A DNA stretch of 64,000 nucleotides from Escherichia coli. Its GTDB lineage: Bacteria; Pseudomonadota; Gammaproteobacteria; Enterobacterales; Enterobacteriaceae. Below are positions 2,672 to 27,572 of the stretch, one piece after another (the first letter of the stretch is position 1; every line of letters begins with the position of its first letter). The stretch lies in assembly GCA_902500205.1 (NCBI GenBank), contig GCA_902500205.1_4868.1, one strand, 5' to 3'. Under the pieces are notes generated by a model. The model worked only from the letters and a program-made list of their open reading frames with translations. It had not been told where the DNA came from and did no database searches. The translations under genes and the position numbers were made by a program.

Positions 2672-3400
2672 GTGGTCGTGAGCGCCATTGAAACAGCACG
2701 TCGTGACGCGACGAAAATTCATGCAGATTTAGTGGACCAAGGCACGGCCACCATCACCAAAGGGGGATGTTACATTTACATCCCTGTTGGCTTCGTGGCT
2801 AAAGAGCTGGCGGTAATTTCTTCGCAAGTCGAAATCGTCGGTATTTTCGCTATCTCCACTGACCGCAAAACCTACGGGGTATCGAACGTCACGACGTTCA
2901 TTGAAATTACCCCGTCGGCGTTTGAGGAAATTGACGTTCAGGGTGTGCCGTATTACGAGTTCCGTTTTGACCCCGGCACGGTGGTGTTCCCCAACCGAAT
3001 GCTGCAAGTGCTCTCCTCGCCAGTCTACAACATCGCTTCGTACATCTACGACTTCGGAAACCGGCCTTTCTGGTACACCGCAGTAGATGACGCTGAGCTA
3101 TTGTCTGACACTAAGACGTGGAACGGCTTTACGGTCTTTAACGACCAGATCACCGCTGACTGTTATGCTGCCCACACACAGCGTAAGGTTGGCGACCCGC
3201 GGACGTATTTCCGCTACACCCTGAAAAAAGACAGCGATTTGATGAATCGGGTGCAGTTTATTCCGCTGCGTTCAGGTTCATTGAACAAAACTTCCCGGCT
3301 GGCCAAGATTGCAGATGTGGAACTGAAACAGGGTATCCGTTCTGCACTCCAGGTCGATCCGGTACGTGCAGAGCCACTCGAGGATTTGTATATGAGGTAA
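2672..3400 (+). CDS. hypothetical protein (GTG start at 2672 or 2678)
   Basis: ORF track; GAGG Shine-Dalgarno upstream. Confidence 0.55.
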   Translation: MVVSAIETARRDATKIHADLVDQGTATITKGGCYIYIPVGFVAKELAVISSQVEIVGIFAISTDRKTYGVSNVTTFIEITPSAFEEIDVQGVPYYEFRFDPGTVVFPNRMLQVLSSPVYNIASYIYDFGNRPFWYTAVDDAELLSDTKTWNGFTVFNDQITADCYAAHTQRKVGDPRTYFRYTLKKDSDLMNRVQFIPLRSGSLNKTSRLAKIADVELKQGIRSALQVDPVRAEPLEDLYMR

Positions 3401-3462
3401 CTGAGGTAGGGTTATTGTACGTCCCCAATAACCCGCTTCGGTAATAACAACTGGGGAAACCA

Positions 3463-4266
3463 ATGGAAAACTTGTCACTACGTTATAACTGCGTGGCACT
3501 CGCTGGGGTCAATAAAGGGGCAACGCTAAAGAAAGATGCGGACGGATATTACTACGTCCTGTTAGGTGCACTGAATATTTTCAACTCTGAGAATATTTAC
3601 TACGCCTATAACGAGTCAAAACATGTCTTCGAGCGCTCTAACGTTTTCATGCGTAAAGTTTTGGCGGGGAATCTCTTCGGTGAAGAAGACCATCCGCAAT
3701 ACGAACAAGGCATGAGCGAAGCCCAGTGGATCGAACGTAACGAATGGATCGAAACGCGTAACGTGTGTATGCACATTCGCGAAGTAGAAGTGAAGCCGAC
3801 CGACCAGATGTGTAACGGTCTGCCGGTGATGGAAATTTGGGGTTGGATTAAACCTAACCGTGAACGTGGTCCGCTTCTGGCGGAAGCACTAGAGAACCCA
3901 CATCAGAACGTGTGTTTCTCGCTGCGTGCTATCGTTCGTGAAGGTCGTCTGGGTACGACTATCGTACGCCGCATCGATAAACTGGTCACCTTTGACTGGG
4001 TTATTGAAGATGGCCTGCAAATCTGTAACAAATACTCTGCGATTCAACGCGGTAGTAAAGTAGCACAGGAATCTACTCGCACTTACGTCGACCGCCCTAT
4101 CAGTCGTCAAGTGTTGGAAGACATTCTGTACAATCCGACAACGACCAGCGCTGTTGCCACTGAGTCCCGTCGTGGTGCTCTCCAGCAACTCGCGCAGGAA
4201 TACCTGCAGCTGGCTCCGAAAGTGTCCAATCTGCGGGTAATGGGCATGGGTGTAAGGAGCTGGTAA
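3463..4266 (+). CDS. hypothetical protein (267 aa)
   Basis: ORF track, same-strand gene array. Confidence 0.6.
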   Translation: MENLSLRYNCVALAGVNKGATLKKDADGYYYVLLGALNIFNSENIYYAYNESKHVFERSNVFMRKVLAGNLFGEEDHPQYEQGMSEAQWIERNEWIETRNVCMHIREVEVKPTDQMCNGLPVMEIWGWIKPNRERGPLLAEALENPHQNVCFSLRAIVREGRLGTTIVRRIDKLVTFDWVIEDGLQICNKYSAIQRGSKVAQESTRTYVDRPISRQVLEDILYNPTTTSAVATESRRGALQQLAQEYLQLAPKVSNLRVMGMGVRSW

Positions 4267-17178: not shown

Positions 17179-19290
17179 ATGATACTGCGAAAAAACGATT
17201 GGCGGCACTATCCGGGGGCGATTGTTGACGATGTCACGCCAAACGTGCACTTCCTTCAATTCGCCACAACACTACAGGGATTAGGTGTCCAGCACTGGTA
17301 CGTACACCTGGCGTTACACAATCCTGAGCTACGTGGTGTTGATCCATTCAGTCCGGATTTAACGCTCGAACAAAAAGCGATGATTGTTACGGAGTGCGCG
17401 GAAAACCCATGGTACTTCTTCCGTGAATGTGTCCGTGTCCCTGCGGATGGTGTAAAAAACGGGATGCCGTTTCGTCTAGACCGCGGTAACTTTTCGATGT
17501 ACTGGATTTTCTTCAACAACATCGACGCCGCTATCGAGTTTCTCCGTCAGCATGGTAAAACTGTCGGGATGTCCGCACTGCTATTATGGCTGATGCGCTT
17601 CCTGGAGAACTCACGTACGATTCTTATCACGAAGGGTCCTGCCCTGCGTGAAGAAACTATCAACAAGATGAAGCAACTGCGTAACGCGTTACCGGATTAC
17701 CTCTGGCCTCATCATCCGGACGATCCTGATAACCGTGAGACATTTGCTTGTCTAGCACAGGGTAACAAACTTATCACCGGCATCGGCCAGAACGATAAGG
17801 AAGCCGCGAACGGGGTAGGCCGTGGACTCACAGCCGGACGCCTGTTCTCGGACGAAGGACCGTTTACCAACAACATCCACCATATCCTCCCTGCTGCACT
17901 AGCATCGGGTACCGCGGCGCGTCGTATTAACGAAGCCGAAGGTGTTCCATACGGCAACGTCTTCGCAACAACGCCTGGGGATTTGGCGACAGAAGAAGGC
18001 GAGTACATGTACAGCCTGATGACGTCGGGGATTTCGTGGGATGAACGGTATATCGACATTCCGACTCGTGCACAACTGATTGACATGATTCGCAAAGGCT
18101 CTACTGCGAAGATTCCACGTATCATGTTCTACGTGAAATACAACCACCGCCAACTCGGTACCACGGACGAAGAACTCGCAGATATGATTGCGAACGCCCC
18201 AGGTACACTAGACCAAATCCGCCGTGACTTCGGTGGTGAATGGACAACCGGTGGTTACAACAAACCGTTCTCAGGCGATGATGCAAGACGTATGAACGCC
18301 TCGCGTATTCGTGCGGCGCAGAAAATTATTTCTGCTTCCAACTACGTAACGGATTGGTATTACACTGAAGAACAGATGCTGGTTAAAATGCAAGACCGCC
18401 ACATCATCGGTTTGGATACTTCCGAAGCCGTTGGACGTGACGCCATTGCCATGTCAATCGTCAACTCTGTCACTGCCGAATATGCCGGCAAGCTCACCGT
18501 GAACGAAACAAACGTCATCGGGTTTGCGATTCACTTAGCAGACTTCATGATCGAATATCCGAACACGGTACTCATTCTGGAACGACGGTCTACCGGCTCC
18601 TCGGTAGCAGATGCCATTATACTGCAGCTGCAATCTAAGGTTCGCGATTTGCATCGTCGTTTGTACGTGAAAGTGACCCAGGATTACTCAAGGAACGATG
18701 AACTTTACAAAGAGTTCCATCGTGGCCCTGTGGGCAGTCCAGAGCGCTTCTGGGACAAATTCCGTAAATACATCGGTTTCTCAACCGACCAGGATAAACG
18801 CCGTAAGTTGTATGGTGAAGTATTTACCACGGCGTTGCGTCTTTCTGCGGACTTACTGCGGTCAGGCGAATTGATCGACCAAATCCTCGGTCTCGTCGAA
18901 CGAAACGGGCGCATAGACCACCGTGCATCCGGTCACGATGACCTGGTAATATCCTGGCTTCTGGCAATGTGGTTACTTCTGTTCGGCAACAACTTAGGCC
19001 ACTACGGTATAAGTAACAGCCGACTGATGATGCGCAACCGCAATATGCTCGGGGGCATGGCAGGTGAATTCGATGAAGAGGCTGCAGTCGAGGAAGAAGA
19101 AAAGCAACAACAACTGATGGGGCAAATTGAAACGATGATTAGACAGAGTCAAGTTGTAGCCGACCCGGTACAACAGCTCATGTACAAGAATCGTATTCAA
19201 GCGCTCGTCTCTCAACTCAACACTGACGTTCGTAACGTCGCATCGATGGAAAGCTTGAAAGAGCTAATCCAACGACAGAGGATGAAGTGA
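17179..19290 (+). CDS. terminase large subunit (ATPase plus nuclease)
   Basis: Walker A LRQHGKT close to T4 gp17 SRQLGKT; C-terminal nuclease-type motif RASGHDDLVISWLLA. Confidence 0.7.
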   Translation: MILRKNDWRHYPGAIVDDVTPNVHFLQFATTLQGLGVQHWYVHLALHNPELRGVDPFSPDLTLEQKAMIVTECAENPWYFFRECVRVPADGVKNGMPFRLDRGNFSMYWIFFNNIDAAIEFLRQHGKTVGMSALLLWLMRFLENSRTILITKGPALREETINKMKQLRNALPDYLWPHHPDDPDNRETFACLAQGNKLITGIGQNDKEAANGVGRGLTAGRLFSDEGPFTNNIHHILPAALASGTAARRINEAEGVPYGNVFATTPGDLATEEGEYMYSLMTSGISWDERYIDIPTRAQLIDMIRKGSTAKIPRIMFYVKYNHRQLGTTDEELADMIANAPGTLDQIRRDFGGEWTTGGYNKPFSGDDARRMNASRIRAAQKIISASNYVTDWYYTEEQMLVKMQDRHIIGLDTSEAVGRDAIAMSIVNSVTAEYAGKLTVNETNVIGFAIHLADFMIEYPNTVLILERRSTGSSVADAIILQLQSKVRDLHRRLYVKVTQDYSRNDELYKEFHRGPVGSPERFWDKFRKYIGFSTDQDKRRKLYGEVFTTALRLSADLLRSGELIDQILGLVERNGRIDHRASGHDDLVISWLLAMWLLLFGNNLGHYGISNSRLMMRNRNMLGGMAGEFDEEAAVEEEEKQQQLMGQIETMIRQSQVVADPVQQLMYKNRIQALVSQLNTDVRNVASMESLKELIQRQRMK

Positions 19291-21044: not shown

Positions 21045-22178
21045 ATGATGAACTATGAACGTAAGCACGCGTGGCAAGAAAAGCTACGCACGGGACAGAT
21101 ACATTCTGCCCAACAAGTGAAGATGTGGGTGCTGCCGCACGGCGTCATCTGCGAAATGGTCCAGGTCGGAGGATTACCTATTCTTCGAAATGGTAAATAC
21201 GATTCGATGAACACGGTACTCGCGCGCTTGCTGGCCGATGCAGGCATAATGGGTACCGTGATTTTATATTCAACCGCAACGATTCCCCAGAATCTTTCTC
21301 GCTGGTTAACGCATTGGCTTTCCAATGACCCTGGCGAGGACGATCCGTGGCTACGTTCGATGACAGTGACAACAATGGGTCAACGGCCGACGAAACCCCT
21401 CCCATTCCAGGTCAATGTAATTGAACCAGCTATTCTGGAAGCGGGTGAAGTGTTTGAAGCAATCAAACATCGATCTCGCGATGTTAGCATCAGTCAGTTT
21501 CTTATCGAAGCGAATGATGTGACTTACCGGCTGGAACCTGTACGACGTATGGACGCTCGTATCGTCGACTGCACAGAGTTCGGTTATGTCTTGCGTACAC
21601 AGGGCAACCATACCTTCCTGGCATCGATGCTCTCTCGCCGCGTGCAGGGACAGTTAGCACACTACAAAGTGTCCCCTGCTGACCTCGTCGGTACCGACGT
21701 TAAGGTCGAATACACAATGTTTACCGAAGGGAATCGACTGTGTAATTTTAAGTCTCCGGTAGTCTATCGGAGTAAGGCACTTGATGCCTTAGGCGACCAG
21801 AATGTCCCGACATACGATGGCCCCTATCCGTTTAAATCGCAAGCATCTGCAAACCGTGCGCTCCTTACGGTAACTCGGTGTAAACGCGCAGCGATCACAC
21901 TGACCGACGGGGAAATTTATGGTAAGGACACTGAGTCTGACGCAAAACTCTTTTCGTTCCGGCGTGGTGTGAAACCTGGATTGTATGCCGCGACGTTTGA
22001 AAAGGGGGATGACGTCGAGTTCTGGCAGTTCGACAGCGATTTCGCAGTAGATGCGATTGACCCAGATGCGTTAGTGAGTGTCATCACAGACCAAATCTTT
22101 TACGCGACGGGTATGAACCTGCTGGAAATCTTTTTAATGTACGATGCCAGATTACCTTCACAGTCAGTCAAAACGTAA
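21045..22178 (+). CDS. hypothetical protein (377 aa)
   Basis: GAAGGAG upstream of ATG. Confidence 0.6.
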   Translation: MMNYERKHAWQEKLRTGQIHSAQQVKMWVLPHGVICEMVQVGGLPILRNGKYDSMNTVLARLLADAGIMGTVILYSTATIPQNLSRWLTHWLSNDPGEDDPWLRSMTVTTMGQRPTKPLPFQVNVIEPAILEAGEVFEAIKHRSRDVSISQFLIEANDVTYRLEPVRRMDARIVDCTEFGYVLRTQGNHTFLASMLSRRVQGQLAHYKVSPADLVGTDVKVEYTMFTEGNRLCNFKSPVVYRSKALDALGDQNVPTYDGPYPFKSQASANRALLTVTRCKRAAITLTDGEIYGKDTESDAKLFSFRRGVKPGLYAATFEKGDDVEFWQFDSDFAVDAIDPDALVSVITDQIFYATGMNLLEIFLMYDARLPSQSVKT

Positions 22179-22188
22179 GGAGCCTCCT

Positions 22189-22698
22189 ATGTTTACTGCG
22201 CCAACCATGCGGGTGGAGCAAGGTCTTAACCTGGTGGTACACGACCAGCGGTTAATCGACCTCTGCGACACAAGCATAATTACTGCGATGATGGACCATA
22301 ACCCTTTAGGTGACTACGGAAATACCAGCGAGATTTTGGCTGTTGCTGCCGTCCTCCGTCGTATTTACGGTCAAATAACCATCGTAGATCTCTGTAACTT
22401 CATTGACAACCACAGAGATTTAACTAAAGGGTTGGTCGCACTTACTCAAGATGGGGTGTCAAGTTTTGACAGTTCTCTTGGTAATTTCCTAGACATCGGT
22501 TCCGGGTTCGACTCCGGGCTAATGTTCATCACTCGTGAACGCTACGTCGCCGTCTGGGAATTTCTGCAACGCATGGGTGTGCATGTTCCTGCAAAGATCA
22601 TGCATTACCAAACTTACGACCTGAATATTTTCGGGGAGCCAGGGTTATGGATAAAACCAGTACACCTTGGCCTTGATGGCTACACCATCAAGTGTTAA
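22189..22698 (+). CDS. hypothetical protein (start at ATG 22189)
   Basis: AAGGAG upstream of ATG 22189. Confidence 0.55.
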   Translation: MFTAPTMRVEQGLNLVVHDQRLIDLCDTSIITAMMDHNPLGDYGNTSEILAVAAVLRRIYGQITIVDLCNFIDNHRDLTKGLVALTQDGVSSFDSSLGNFLDIGSGFDSGLMFITRERYVAVWEFLQRMGVHVPAKIMHYQTYDLNIFGEPGLWIKPVHLGLDGYTIKC

Positions 22699-22705
22699 GT
22701 CACTA

Positions 22706-22756
22706 GGCGTACTCTCTTCGGGGAGTACGCCAATCTTATTTTTTTTATTTTTTTGG
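22706..22756 (+). terminator. intrinsic terminator
   Basis: Hairpin GGCGTACTC-TCTTCGG-GGAGTACGCC followed by a long T-run. Confidence 0.7.
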
Positions 22757-23289
22757 TTACTTTTTAACCAACCGGTTAAAGGGGTCTGGGAAGCATCAGA
22801 AAACGATTAGGTGGTATCGACGTAGGGTAGCTCGTTTTTGGCAGTTTATCGTTTTCTAGGGTCTGTTACGTGCGTTTTAGAGGGGGTTATGTATCGAGAC
22901 AGAGAATTTATTTTTGTCGGGGCGAGGAAATTCAGGGAATGGGGATTCAGGATTGTATGTTTTTTAACCAGTTATTAAAAACGCTCTAGAAAGCGCTAGA
23001 ACGAGATTTAACTCAGACCCAGTACACTTGGGTTCCCTATACCGGAAAATCGCGCCAGCGGGCCGCTGAGAGCGCGAGAGAGCCATTCCCGTTTCGGTTC
23101 CGAGGTGACGGTCGCGGCCGGCGACGACGATCACACGTTGGGTAGCACTTCGTGCCATGTCTGGGTGAAAACTGGATCGTTCTGTAACCGACACACACTG
23201 TCGGTTACTTACGAGTTCTTTGGGTTGTTTAATTCACTCTAAAATCCCCCTTAGGGGATAATTTAATCTAATTCTCAAAATTTCTTTTT

Positions 23290-23560
23290 AAAACAATCAC
23301 TTAGATTGTTTTTTAGATTGATCCTGTGGATCGGGTCGAAGACCCTTTCCTTATACGCGTGCGCGTGCGCGCACCCGTATCCTCCAGGATCTTTTAAAAT
23401 ATATAATAATATTAAATATAATAATACCTTTAGGTATTATATTTAATTATTATAATTATTTATATAAATAAATATATTAATATATTAAGATCTTAAAACG
23501 CGTGCGGGCGCGCGCGTGATCCTTATTAAGAGATCGTGATCGGACGGAAGACCGAGATCG
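23290..23560. promoter_or_regulatory. GATC-rich AT island flanked by alternating CG tracts; candidate origin-like or unwinding element
   Basis: 8 GATC sites within 239 bp; a roughly 105-bp almost pure A/T core (23392..23497); flanking tracts ACGCGTGCGCGTGCGCGCAC and ACGCGTGCGGGCGCGCGCGTG; inverted repeat AAAACAATC..GATTGTTTT at 23290..23312. Confidence 0.4.
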
Positions 23561-24467
23561 GGTACCCTGTGTATTTTTTACGTGGTTTCCCTATCGTGTG
23601 TTCAGACCACCACTCGATGTCCAAAAACCCATAGCTTCGGTGGTCGCCTCCCTGGTCGGTAGACTCTGACAAGTCGACCCACACCACCAACCCGTCCGGG
23701 GACGGATTTTTATTCCAACGACAAGCTCCACGAAAATCCCCGCAGAGGGACTCACTGCTGTGTGACTCACCGGCTCCTGGACGCCTACGCCTCGAGCCGG
23801 TAATTTTTTGATTACGTGAGTTTGTTGTTATATGCGAATAGCGATTGACCGCGCCAATGGTCCAATCACTTTTTAAACCCTGCACGCTAGGGCTCCAAGT
23901 CCTGGGATTGATACCCAGGACGCTTTTTCGAAAATACCTGCCGTGGTGTCTTCGACAAAGCGCAATCTAACACTGCGTGATTTATTATGTTCTGGAAAAC
24001 TTTCGCCGTGGAACAGAACCGGTGAGCGTCGGCGGGGATTCCGACAATCACCACCCATTCAGGTACTCGGTAGATAACCGACCTGCCGACGGTGCTACGT
24101 CGGGCGTAGTTCGGTTTGCGAGAGTGTCGAGAAAGTCGACTGCGCACCCATGACAAAATCCGAGTTGACCGTGGCAGCGCCAGAGGACTGGGCAGCGGAG
24201 AGACGTCGTTGAACTTACCTCCGATAGTTATCGCTGATTCCGCTCTGGCGTCGGGCCAAAACTGATTCGAATTCGGCGTTGCGTCGAAAAGGGGTCTGCG
24301 TGTAGAACCGCAGACTTGGGGGATAACTCCAAAGTGGGGTGATCGGATCTTGACGGCTCGGAATAGACGAGAGGGGTGGGTACTCCCGTTGAGAAACGAC
24401 GGTACCTGGCTGATTAAAATTTACAGATTCTGCGTGAGGTATGATAAACCAAACGGAGAATTAAACC

Positions 24468-25043
24468 ATGAACTTGTATCGCGTCGGGTTTTACCGAAAC
24501 GAGATGCCTGAATCGGTTTTGGTTGTCTTAGCCGAAAACGAGGAGCAGGCCAAATCCTTCTGGCCGGTTAGCGCAGAGCGTCCAGCGGTTGCGTGCTGCT
24601 ACGACGGCGCTGTGTCTACCCCGATGGTTACGCCTGGGGTGGTTCTGAAGCAAGGCCGATGGGAAGATTACTCCCATCCCGGTTTGGAGTTTGTTTCCGA
24701 ACCTGCCAGACATTCCTGGGAATTTCCCTCAGGCAACACCGAGACGTATTTCGGATTTCAGGTTAAACAACCTTCGACGCTCAAACTGTACCTGGTGTAC
24801 AGCGACGCCGCTACCGAAGACTACGTCGATTCCGGAATCATCGTCGGGGCAACAACCCCTGCTGCGGCATTCGCACATTGGGACGGTGATAAACCCGGAA
24901 TCGTTTCGGTCTGTGAGCTACCACTTGAAGCCGGTTTGGTTACGAACATCAAGTGTGAGCAAGGCCAGGAGCTGACTTGGATGCGCCAGGATTACCTGAC
25001 GGAAACGACATTCGAATACACACCGAGGAGGGTGACCCAATGA
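24468..25043 (+). CDS. hypothetical protein, translationally coupled to the HslV-like peptidase; N-terminus paralogous to gene 25766
   Basis: ATGA overlap with the next gene; shares MNLY...VV.A..EEQA N-terminal pattern with 25766..26008. Confidence 0.55.
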   Translation: MNLYRVGFYRNEMPESVLVVLAENEEQAKSFWPVSAERPAVACCYDGAVSTPMVTPGVVLKQGRWEDYSHPGLEFVSEPARHSWEFPSGNTETYFGFQVKQPSTLKLYLVYSDAATEDYVDSGIIVGATTPAAAFAHWDGDKPGIVSVCELPLEAGLVTNIKCEQGQELTWMRQDYLTETTFEYTPRRVTQ

Positions 25044-25531
25044 CGACGATAGCGTTCGACGGAAAAGTCTTAGCTGCTGACGGTCAGCTGACCCGCGGGT
25101 CGAATATCTGCAACCTGAACACCCAGAAGTTATTCATCTGCCCTTCTGACGAGGAATGGTGGATTACTGGTGAACGGATTGTGGCGTTCGGAGTAAGCGG
25201 TGACATCACAGGACAGTTGGCCCTGCTGGAAACGGTCCGCTTGAGACCCGGCTACAAGGGATTAACACAAAGCTCGCAGTTACCTACGAAGATGGATTTT
25301 ACTTTCCTGATGCTTTTGGCCTCAGGAAAAGCGATAGTCGGCGGAAAACGTGAAGACGACGTGACGTTGTGGTGGAGTGAAGCCACACCACCTCTGGCAA
25401 CCGGAAGCGGTTACGAGTATGCGTTGGGTGCGATGAAGATGGGCGCGAATGCGGTTCGTGCTGTTGAGATTGCGTCCGAATGCGATATCTACACCGGTGG
25501 TGAGATTAGCACTTACGAATTACGGAGGTGA
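25040..25531 (+). CDS. HslV-like Ntn-hydrolase peptidase (proteasome beta-type fold)
   Basis: Begins MTTIAFDGKVLAADGQ (Thr1 nucleophile exposed after Met removal, as in HslV MTTIVSV..GDGQ); GSGYEYALGAM and CDIYTGGEI match HslV GSGG..A.AA and ICIYTNH regions; GAGGAGG upstream. Confidence 0.75.
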   Translation: MTTIAFDGKVLAADGQLTRGSNICNLNTQKLFICPSDEEWWITGERIVAFGVSGDITGQLALLETVRLRPGYKGLTQSSQLPTKMDFTFLMLLASGKAIVGGKREDDVTLWWSEATPPLATGSGYEYALGAMKMGANAVRAVEIASECDIYTGGEISTYELRR

Positions 25532-25623
25532 ATCATGCGGGAGTCAGAAGCACGCAAGCTTGACCCCATCAATCGCCTGCGATAACGGGGTAGCGCATCC
25601 GTATAAACACGTTCAAGAATTCT

Positions 25624-25699
25624 AGGAAAGTGACGCAATTGGTAGCGTACCGGTCTCCAAAACCGGCTGTTTAGAGTTCGAGTCTCTACTTTCCTGCCA
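25624..25699 (+). tRNA. tRNA-Trp (anticodon CCA), 3' CCA encoded
   Basis: Manual cloverleaf: acceptor AGGAAAG/CTTTCCT, D-stem ACGC/GCGT with GG in loop, anticodon stem CCGGT/ACCGG with loop CTCCAAA, T-arm TAGAG-TTCGAGT-CTCTA. Confidence 0.85.
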
Positions 25700-25765
25700 C
25701 ATTTAGCCAACAAGGCCATGATTCAAAGCAGAATGACACCGAATGTCTAACTGCGGAGAATAATC

Positions 25766-26008
25766 ATGAACTTGTATTTGCTAGAACGAACTGACGATAT
25801 CGGGTATGATGAATTTGATTCCATAATCGTGGCGGCTCCTACGGAGCAAGCCGCGTGTGCAATTCCTCCCGACCGTGGTCATTGGATGGACTGCCGCTGG
25901 TTACCGAAAGAGCGCTGGGATGAAGGGCTTACCCTGACCGTTACCCTTATCGGCACTACGCACTATCCTGCTGGGACCGTCGTTCATGAATCGTTCAATG
26001 CTGGCTAA
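25766..26008 (+). CDS. hypothetical small protein, N-terminal paralog of gene 24468
   Basis: Same leader and MNLY start as 24468; followed by a UUCG-loop hairpin at about 26012..26030. Confidence 0.5.
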   Translation: MNLYLLERTDDIGYDEFDSIIVAAPTEQAACAIPPDRGHWMDCRWLPKERWDEGLTLTVTLIGTTHYPAGTVVHESFNAG

Positions 26009-27047
26009 ACAGTGGGCTTCGGCCCACTAACCCTATTCGAGCCATGATACTTACTCAGATTGTGCGGGTTGATGTCCCGCATGAGCCGGTAGCAGCTCAG
26101 ACCTACGGTAAACCGATAAATCCGTAGCAGCCAGGTACACAAAGCACCAGGTCGCTTGTACAGGATGCTGGGTATCTGACCGGTCATAACCTCATTCGAT
26201 ACGAGACACGTTTATGCATGAAATATTCCAGTACATCAGGATGTTGATTTCAAACGTCCGGTTCTGGGTATTCAATCATGTTTGGTTTACAGGCGATGGG
26301 TTTTCCCGCAAGGGCCCCACTTACAGACTGGCGTCTCCACGACAACCGTCCCTAGGGGACAGGCAAGCACCGGCCCATTAAGCCGCCATGCTACGCCTGT
26401 AAATCCACAATCTGATAACCGAATGGGATTGAGTTCCCAGTGTTAGGGTGACTGTGTGTCACCGTAGGCGCGGTACCTCATACGGCCGGTACGCCACGAA
26501 TGTACGTGATAGCAGGTGGTGCTTGGAGACGCTAAGACCTGACCTTACGGCCAGGCTCAGAAGAAGAAGTTCATCACCCGCATTCAGAAATGAATTTAGG
26601 TTAATTATTGGAAGTGGTGAAATCGTTTACGTGATAACTTAGTAGTATGCAACGAACAATACCAGAGTGACTTTACGAGGTTACTGTGGTATATGTCGGT
26701 GCGCCGGGCAACGTGTTGCCGCAGATAAGCCCGAGGGAGCTGAATGCACTAACACACGCCGGGATGCACCGGCACCTTACAATGGGAGCGCTGTCACCAT
26801 CAGTGATGACAGGAGTGAAGGATTCGTACCTCACTCGACTGGGCGGAAGCCTGGGCGTTCCCCCATCTTCACATCATGGCCGGCTTGCCGGTTCAACGTA
26901 GACGTCTCGTAAGAGATTTCCAGTCAGGCAACTGATAACACACCTAAGCGTCGACCTTGGACGTATGGTGTCTGGTTAAGTCCCCCGAAACGGAAACCAG
27001 TAGGGGTGTGGTACGTTGAGTGTAACTATCATGATGCCATGAACAAT

Positions 27048-27117
27048 GGCTTTGTAGCTCAGGTAGGTAGAGCAGCCTCTTCGAGGAAGGTCGCCGGTTC
27101 GAGACCGGTCAAAGCAA
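27048..27117 (+). pseudogene. tRNA-like element with truncated anticodon arm (degenerate tRNA?)
   Basis: Good acceptor (6 of 7 bp), D-arm GCTC-AGGTAGGTA-GAGC and T-arm GCCGG-TTCGAGA-CCGGT, but the anticodon arm is only CCTC-TTC-GAGG. Confidence 0.3.
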
Positions 27118-27119
27118 GA

Positions 27120-27189
27120 GCAGTGAAGTTAGAGGAATTAACACCCGACTCATAATCGGATATTTCGCGGGTTCGAATCCCTGCCACTT
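27120..27189 (+). pseudogene. tRNA-like element with CAU anticodon loop (degenerate tRNA-Met/Ile-like?)
   Basis: D-arm GTTA-GAGGAAT-TAAC and anticodon arm CCGA-CTCATAA-TCGG are fine, T-loop GGGTTCGAATCCC present, but T-stem and acceptor pair poorly. Confidence 0.3.
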
Positions 27190-27572
27190 GCTCGCCCCAT
27201 TTGTGTTATCCTTATCCCGAAGGCATTCGAAATAAGACGCGTATCCACACACGGGTCAAGGGTAACACGAACCACTTCCGCGGTCACCGTGTCCATTGCC
27301 GCCTACCTGCATGGGCTGTCCTCCGACACGGTGACTTCGGGCCAACTTACAGGCCAGGGCTGTTTGGGTTTTTCTTACGCATCCATCCAGAGCCACCTCG
27401 CGCCCTAGTCTGTATACCCCTTTTCTGTTCCTGGTTTGCCAACTAAATCAATTAAGCCTGGTGCGTTGCCCTGGGAACAGAAAAACTTATTCGGTTACAC
27501 ACCGAACCCACCCACGAGGGATATGTCGTGGACCACCAATAGAAGCAGCAATAGTAGTAAGAAGGAAGCAAC

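Follow-up and report, generated by a model that had tools for sequence, protein, structure and literature searches.

A proteasome-family peptidase gene, probably of the PPH type, and its neighbours in a Seoulvirus jumbo phage

This study concerns a gene for a small proteasome-type peptidase, and the genes around it, in a stretch of 64,000 nucleotides of contig GCA_902500205.1_4868.1 (hereafter the window). The window derives from a Seoulvirus, that is an SPN3US-like Salmonella/E. coli jumbo phage with a genome of ~240 kb, and the locus between positions 24300 and 26200 shares 97.7% identity with Escherichia phage vB_EcoM_EC001 and 96% with the SPFM phages. Four features follow one another on the + strand, exactly at the positions that had been given in the original prediction, which was made from the letters of the DNA and its open reading frames (ORFs): a 191-residue accessory gene (24468..25043, ORF), the 163-residue peptidase gene (25040..25531, ORF), which begins MTTIAFDGKVLAADGQ and is the orthologue of SPN3US gp1, a tRNA-Trp with anticodon CCA (25624..25699; ARAGORN, and Rfam RF00005 at 63.6 bits) and an 80-residue gene (25766..26008, ORF) encoding a small α/β protein that starts with the residues MNLY and belongs to phrog_5444.

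The leader of the 191-residue gene, aaacGGAGaattaaacc, identified from the sequence, the alignment with the region upstream of the SPN3US gene and the ORF list, includes a GGAG Shine-Dalgarno motif (24455..24458, + strand). The GAGGAGG Shine-Dalgarno motif of the peptidase gene (25025..25031, + strand) lies within the 3' end of the 191-residue gene, and the stop codon of the latter overlaps the peptidase start codon in the tetranucleotide ATGA (25040-25043). This overlap, together with the internal Shine-Dalgarno motif, suggests that the two genes may be translationally coupled. The 80-residue gene is preceded by a GGAG motif (25755..25758, + strand) located inside cGGAGaataatc, where a 16-nt repeat, D5, is held in common with the start of the 191-residue gene. 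Comparison of the three genes with those of SPFM11 yielded ratios of nonsynonymous to synonymous substitution rates (Ka/Ks) of 0.26 for the 191-residue gene, 0.036 for the peptidase gene and 0.10 for the 80-residue gene, indicating purifying selection on all three; the first of these values also argues that the 191-residue frame is coding. PADLOC gave no match for any of the three proteins.

Fold, catalytic residues and family of the peptidase

In a profile search the 163-residue protein matched PHROG 1040, "peptidase HslV family", at E 1.5e-37, and a profile of 52 sequences of its family matched the 20S proteasome β5 subunit at 3e-13 and HslV at 1.5e-11. The AlphaFold2 model (predicted local distance difference test score, pLDDT, 93.5) has the N-terminal nucleophile (Ntn) proteasome fold. 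When the protein was used as a single sequence, searches stayed below threshold: it scored 12.9 bits against Pfam PF00227 Proteasome (cut-off 22.4), 16.3 and 16.1 bits against the NCBIfam HslV models TIGR03692 (cut-off 157.75) and NF003964 (cut-off 137), and had sub-threshold matches only in the PDB; BLASTP against E. coli HslV returned E = 40. The likeness to HslV is therefore visible only at the level of motifs, profile and structure. It had been predicted that the protein aligns along its length with bacterial HslV; this holds for the motifs alone.

In the alignment with β5, the catalytic set falls on these positions (numbering from Met1, with the proteasome residue in brackets): Thr2 (Thr1), Asp14 (Asp17), Lys30 (Lys33) and Gly54 (Gly47), to which are added Ser123 within Gly122-Ser123-Gly124 (Ser129), Asp149 (Asp166) and Thr152 (Ser169). 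In an alignment of 191 homologues of the phage family described below, Lys30 and Gly54 are invariant (191/191 each), Thr2 is kept in 190/191, Asp14 in 189/191, a serine or threonine at position 123 in 186/191, Asp149 in 175/191 and a threonine or serine at position 152 in 190/191. The sequence MTT opens 180 of the 190 other homologues, and position 1 of the family profile falls on residue 1 of the protein, showing that a propeptide is absent. The prediction of a proteasome-type N-terminal threonine peptidase, for which an Ntn fold and a conserved Thr1 had been named as the decisive tests, was thus borne out on both, and the assignment of the 163-residue protein to the proteasome/HslV-type N-terminal threonine peptidases as an enzyme class is well supported.

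The model contains helices H1 (56-66), H3 (125-133) and H4 (138-148). Residues 67-86 form a loop, so that helix H2 is missing, and the chain stops after the last core strand, leaving no C-terminal S12/H5. A β-hairpin insertion of ~10 residues, at about residues 34-47 (codons 25139..25180, + strand, from the alignment and the model), sits between the strand of the Lys33 equivalent and S4, beside the active site, with model strands E40-42 and E45-54. The segment from Lys30 to Gly51 accordingly counts 20 residues in the window protein, whereas it counts 9-10 in 153/191 homologues and at least 17 in 16/191; the S3/S4 insertion is a trait of a minority subgroup, made up mostly of the closest relatives of the window protein. 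In connectase, the same S3/S4 site carries the specificity element.

These features are those of PPH, described as a family of ~140 residues with neither propeptide nor H2, carried by prophages as well as by Caudovirales of Proteobacteria (Fuchs et al. 2021); absence of H2 is described solely for PPH and RPC (Fuchs et al. 2021). The window protein has the compact single domain with a Met-Thr start and no propeptide, the Thr1/Asp17/Lys33 triad with the oxyanion Gly47, no H5 and, when the secondary structure of the AlphaFold2 model is set against the published description, no H2. Its origin is also that of a tailed phage or prophage, as the family occurs in 289 phage records and in phage-like metagenomic contexts. 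It differs from PPH in length, with 163 residues against the usual 140-148 (the median of the homologues is 148), the excess being accounted for by the S3/S4 hairpin and by the loop that replaces H2, which is longer than usual. We conclude that the window peptidase belongs to a widespread phage family, which PHROGs and GenBank label "peptidase HslV family", and that it is most probably of the PPH type.

This family was already known, and so was the gene, as PPH has been described and SPN3US gp1 is annotated: the latter bears the product name "peptidase HslV family" and differs from the window protein at 5/163 residues, and proteins 97-99% identical to the peptidase carry the same annotation in SPN3US and the SPFM phages. 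The 289 phage records comprise jumbo phages as well as the ~42-kb genomes of Jerseyvirus, Kagunavirus and Jedunavirus, with Salmonella, Erwinia, Klebsiella, Pseudomonas, Escherichia, Aeromonas, Vibrio and Rhizobium as hosts, and 911 representatives at 50% identity (E <= 1e-30) were found among 1.84 billion proteins. A proteasome-type peptidase in a phage, which had been called unusual, is therefore common.

The window protein shares with bacterial HslV (ClpQ) the Ntn proteasome fold, the threonine nucleophile and the equivalents of Asp17, Lys33, Gly47 and Ser129. It is not an HslV orthologue, however: it falls far under the TIGR03692, NF003964 and PF00227 cut-offs, one of the two helix pairs of HslV (H1/H2 and H3/H4) is broken by the loss of H2, and no cognate HslU lies alongside or, in SPN3US, elsewhere in the genome (see below). 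The Betaproteobacteria proteasome homologue (BPH) is likewise distinct, being a cellular protein of 185 residues that keeps H1 and H2 and has a long acidic pore loop, whereas the window protein comes from a virus and has no H2.

Neighbouring genes and genomic context

The 191-residue protein occurs in no more than 27 phage records, all of Seoulvirus, and a search of 5.8 billion proteins retrieved none but close relatives. The gene is absent from SPN3US, where the leader GGAGAATTAAA(T/C)C runs directly into the PPH start codon. As the same leader precedes PPH in SPN3US, the gene corresponds to an indel of 572 bp relative to SPN3US, with ATGA microhomology at its bounds, and is best read as a lineage-specific insertion exactly at the peptidase start codon.

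The 191-residue and 80-residue proteins had been proposed to be N-terminal paralogues with near-identical leaders, a view that our data support in part. Residues 1-33 of the 191-residue protein match the 80-residue family (hhalign E 1.4e-5, probability 80%; hmmsearch E 5e-4), so that its first ~33 residues would derive from the MNLY family; the paralogy does not extend to the remainder, which lacks the C-terminal SFNAG motif of that family, and the protein has no PHROG match. A further weak match at residues 105-138 (BLASTP E 0.029; hhalign E 0.06) is suggestive at most of a second MNLY copy. Internal duplication of the protein was considered and rejected, no significant self-similarity being found (E 0.4-0.9). 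At the DNA level, both genes start with ATGAACTTGTAT (MNLY) after the Shine-Dalgarno sequence CGGAGAAT, and D5 is identical at 15/16 positions. The leaders are thus alike over these 16 nt, although a repeat of this size is unremarkable by itself, since such repeats arise by chance in that 5-kb stretch; what gives D5 meaning is its placement at both start codons together with the match at the protein level.

The synonymous divergence (Ks) between the window and SPFM11 is 0.22 in the 191-residue gene, ~3 times the 0.06-0.07 of its neighbours. The changes in the protein cluster in residues 78-104, corresponding to a variable patch around 24699-24779, which suggests recombination or local diversifying change.

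The 80-residue protein matches phrog_5444 at E 5.9e-36 over residues 1-80 and has both the MNLYL start, nearly invariant in the alignment of that family, and the SFNAG C-terminus, which is invariant. Its predicted fold is a four-stranded α/β structure (pLDDT 87.7), for which no relative was found in the PDB. Foldseek searches against BFVD retrieved this fold commonly among uncharacterised jumbo-phage proteins, together with weak matches to Marseillevirus and Pithovirus proteins; the genomes of Aeromonas phage D3, Phabio, Noxifer and 201phi2-1 each encode several paralogues. A second PPH or MNLY paralogue was sought in SPN3US and in the rest of the window, and none was found.

The order PPH, tRNA-Trp and 80-residue gene is kept in SPN3US, Machina and pEa_SNUABM_29. 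Outside this jumbo-phage clade, PPH genes have unrelated neighbours and no homologue of the 80-residue or 191-residue genes, and distant homologues of the 80-residue gene adjoin DNA polymerase A, with no PPH gene within 6 kb. As each occurs there without the other, the linkage reflects shared ancestry and not an obligate partnership; with the 191-residue gene missing from SPN3US, the suggested functional link between the peptidase and its MNLY neighbours finds no backing. A conserved partner gene was also sought and rejected, the upstream genes being mutually unrelated across 8 PPH contexts save for the Jerseyvirus/Kagunavirus pair. In other phages, PPH genes are surrounded by small accessory or early genes or directly precede the lysis genes; in BUCT_49532 the gene stands between tail genes.

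In 7/9 other contexts, PPH overlaps an unrelated upstream gene by ATGA or GTGA. This recurrence is explained in part by the invariant Met-Thr start, as ATGAC includes TGA. In the overlapping contexts the Shine-Dalgarno sequence sits inside the upstream gene. We also observed mosaicism between pEa_SNUABM_29 (3001-3932) and window positions 25040-26008: the 80-residue proteins are 91% identical and the PPH proteins only 38%, suggesting that the peptidase allele either was exchanged or diverged far faster than its neighbours.

HslU and the possible function of the peptidase

The absence of an obvious HslU partner, part of the original prediction, was confirmed in SPN3US: its whole-genome annotation lists no Clp- or HslU-type product, and the sole trace that tblastn with the HslU-like ORF121 of phage pSal-SNUABM-04 (a Machinavirus) picked up in SPN3US or the window was a remnant of 10 residues. 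ORF121 is annotated as DnaA, and the paper on the pSal-SNUABM-04 genome states that HslU is absent. The protein has an HslU-like N-terminus (MENLTPVEIV...GQELAKK...LLGPTGCGKT) and a Pfam AAA_2 match split by an insertion of ~300 residues resembling the I-domain, features that identify this "putative DnaA" as an HslU homologue. At 2.4 kb from it lies ORF116, a second divergent HslV-like gene (pSal-SNUABM-04, MT710307; ORF116 at 18181-18708 and ORF121 at 21145-22878). ORF116 resembles the window peptidase in belonging to a closely related jumbo phage, in its MTT start and in its proteasome fold (A2 profile E 1.3e-9). However, the Machinavirus pair occupies a separate locus ~105 kb away and has its own HslU-like AAA+ protein, and the counterpart of the window gene in Machinavirus-type phages is ORF1, not ORF116.

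By tblastn, full-length copies of ORF121 are present in Machina-like Erwinia phages, pEa_SNUABM_29 and STsAS, and N-terminal remnants of 10-68 residues are found in SPN3US-type phages, the one in Seoulvirus SPLA1a being of 68 residues. The HslU/HslV-like pair was thus lost by the SPN3US-type phages, with PPH kept under strong selection, and the retention of PPH after such a loss argues against its dependence on a phage unfoldase. The nuclear localisation of gp116 of Erwinia phage RAY was considered as evidence on PPH and rejected: gp116 is described as "HslU superfamily", phages of RAY's group have an HslU-like ATPase annotated at about 86-89 kb, and gp116 is probably that ATPase or its partner and not PPH. 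As it likely belongs to the HslU-like module, its localisation is not transferable to PPH.

Taken together, we consider it likely that the window gene encodes a stand-alone PPH-type peptidase with an accessory role in the infected cell and none in capsid maturation. The host methionine aminopeptidase would remove Met1 and expose the threonine as nucleophile. The enzyme, probably a homo-oligomeric ring, would act non-structurally and without an ATPase, in a BPH-like manner, in the infected cell, where its targets would be host or phage proteins or peptides and its role an accessory one in host takeover or counter-defence. The host-targeting role that had been put forward is conceivable. The flanking genes would not be obligate partners, the 80-residue gene being linked to the peptidase only within the jumbo-phage clade.

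The other role put forward earlier, that of a virion or prohead maturation protease, we regard as very improbable. The peptidase is encoded by a phage, and the gene of BUCT_49532 does stand between tail genes, but according to PMC10052503 the maturation of the SPN3US head is the work of an essential prohead protease, gp245, which makes the same job unlikely for PPH. The main text of the paper on the SPN3US virion and essential genes does not mention gp1, the window gene lies in a region of tRNA and small genes and not in the morphogenesis module, and the positions of PPH among accessory or early genes or next to lysis genes in other phages also speak against a role in the capsid. Just as hard to credit is an inactive pseudo-enzyme that would inhibit the host's proteases or serve as a scaffold or decoy: decoys are frequent among the homologues of host enzymes that viruses encode, with nothing specific to PPH pointing this way, but the catalytic positions are kept in ~190 diverse homologues and Ka/Ks is 0.036, which would be unexpected if catalysis had been lost.

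The peptidase could also assemble into HslV-like rings and dock on the HslU of the host, either forming a chimeric ATP-dependent protease or titrating HslU, and so redirect proteolysis. We hold this to be unlikely. By analogy with the β subunits, the missing H2 would contribute to the apical H1/H2 face on which the regulator sits; the score of 16 bits against HslV equivalogs, with cut-offs of 137-158, is far from that of an HslV; the residue aligned with HslV Lys28 is Asn25, at a position that varies across the family; and in the relatives that encode a phage HslU, it is paired with the divergent ORF116 and not with PPH. An active but non-degradative enzyme, which might process specific sequences, work as a connectase-like transpeptidase or ligase or be an amidohydrolase on a non-protein substrate, is given a small chance. 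So is a module confined to the clade, in which the 191-residue or 80-residue protein might recruit substrates to PPH as an adaptor, regulate it or be cleaved by it as a substrate, the proteins jointly forming an ATPase-independent mini-proteasome or connectase-like enzyme directed against host defence or takeover factors, with specificity conferred by the S3/S4 hairpin.

Several points weigh against the stand-alone, accessory peptidase that we favour. The assignment to PPH is indirect, as it rests on the described features and on PHROG 1040 and not on clustering with the published representative, WP_042125023.1 (Fuchs et al. 2021). The absence of HslU was established on the whole genome of SPN3US, the window covering 64 kb of a ~240-kb phage, and the host has HslU, on which the peptidase could depend. 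We found no biochemical or genetic work on any PPH in the literature, and no transcriptome or early-gene data for SPN3US. Finally, the comparison with Lys28 turns on a putative salt bridge between this residue and the C-terminus of HslU, for which a literature check turned up nothing usable.

The window alone adds little, as public annotation and the literature already record the gene, the name of its family and the lack of HslU. The function of PPH, if worked out, would reveal the role of the one branch of the proteasome family that is truly viral, and whether a proteasome-fold peptidase works without an unfoldase. Since amber-mutant genetics is established for SPN3US, gp1 offers a tractable entry point.

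Other features of the surrounding DNA

A G+C-rich stem-loop, AGTGGGC-TTCG-GCCCACT (26011..26028, + strand), was read from the sequence, starting 3 nt past the stop codon of the 80-residue gene. It has no T-run and was not reported by the terminator scan, which missed it because of the absent T-tract; it may mark the point where a transcript ends or is processed.

Downstream, 1.5 kb (26010-27570) are poor in ORFs and contain what seem to be decayed tRNA genes, especially at 27047-27191. The Rfam tRNA model scored 36.4 bits at 27048-27117, above the gathering cut-off and missed by ARAGORN at default settings, and 23.8 bits at 27120-27192. With relaxed settings, ARAGORN reported a Glu(ttc)-like and a Met/Ile2(cat)-like gene with mismatched stems. 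SPN3US labels the first of these tRNA-like genes "tRNA-OTHER", and Machina and pEa_SNUABM_29 have intact arrays at this place. The region looks like an eroding tRNA cluster.

The records of SPFM5, 6, 8, 10, 14, 15 and 20 match the locus only as 24-25 short pieces with frameshifted, fragmentary ORFs. They look like low-quality assemblies and not like biological differences.

Upstream of the locus, window positions 23345-23520 include a run of ~105 bp made up solely of A/T and partly palindromic (23388-23493), flanked by two direct copies of alternating CG, TCCTTATACGCGTGCGCGTGCGCGC and TCTTAAAACGCGTGCGGGCGCGCGC. This stretch lies within a 1.6-kb gap free of ORFs, in which the GenBank records of the SPN3US type start (SPN3US nt 1 corresponds to about window position 23284), and terminator-like hairpins are found near it in excess (14 against 5.7 expected). 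Candidate roles for the A/T stretch are those of a DNA-unwinding element, of an origin or of a site connected with packaging.

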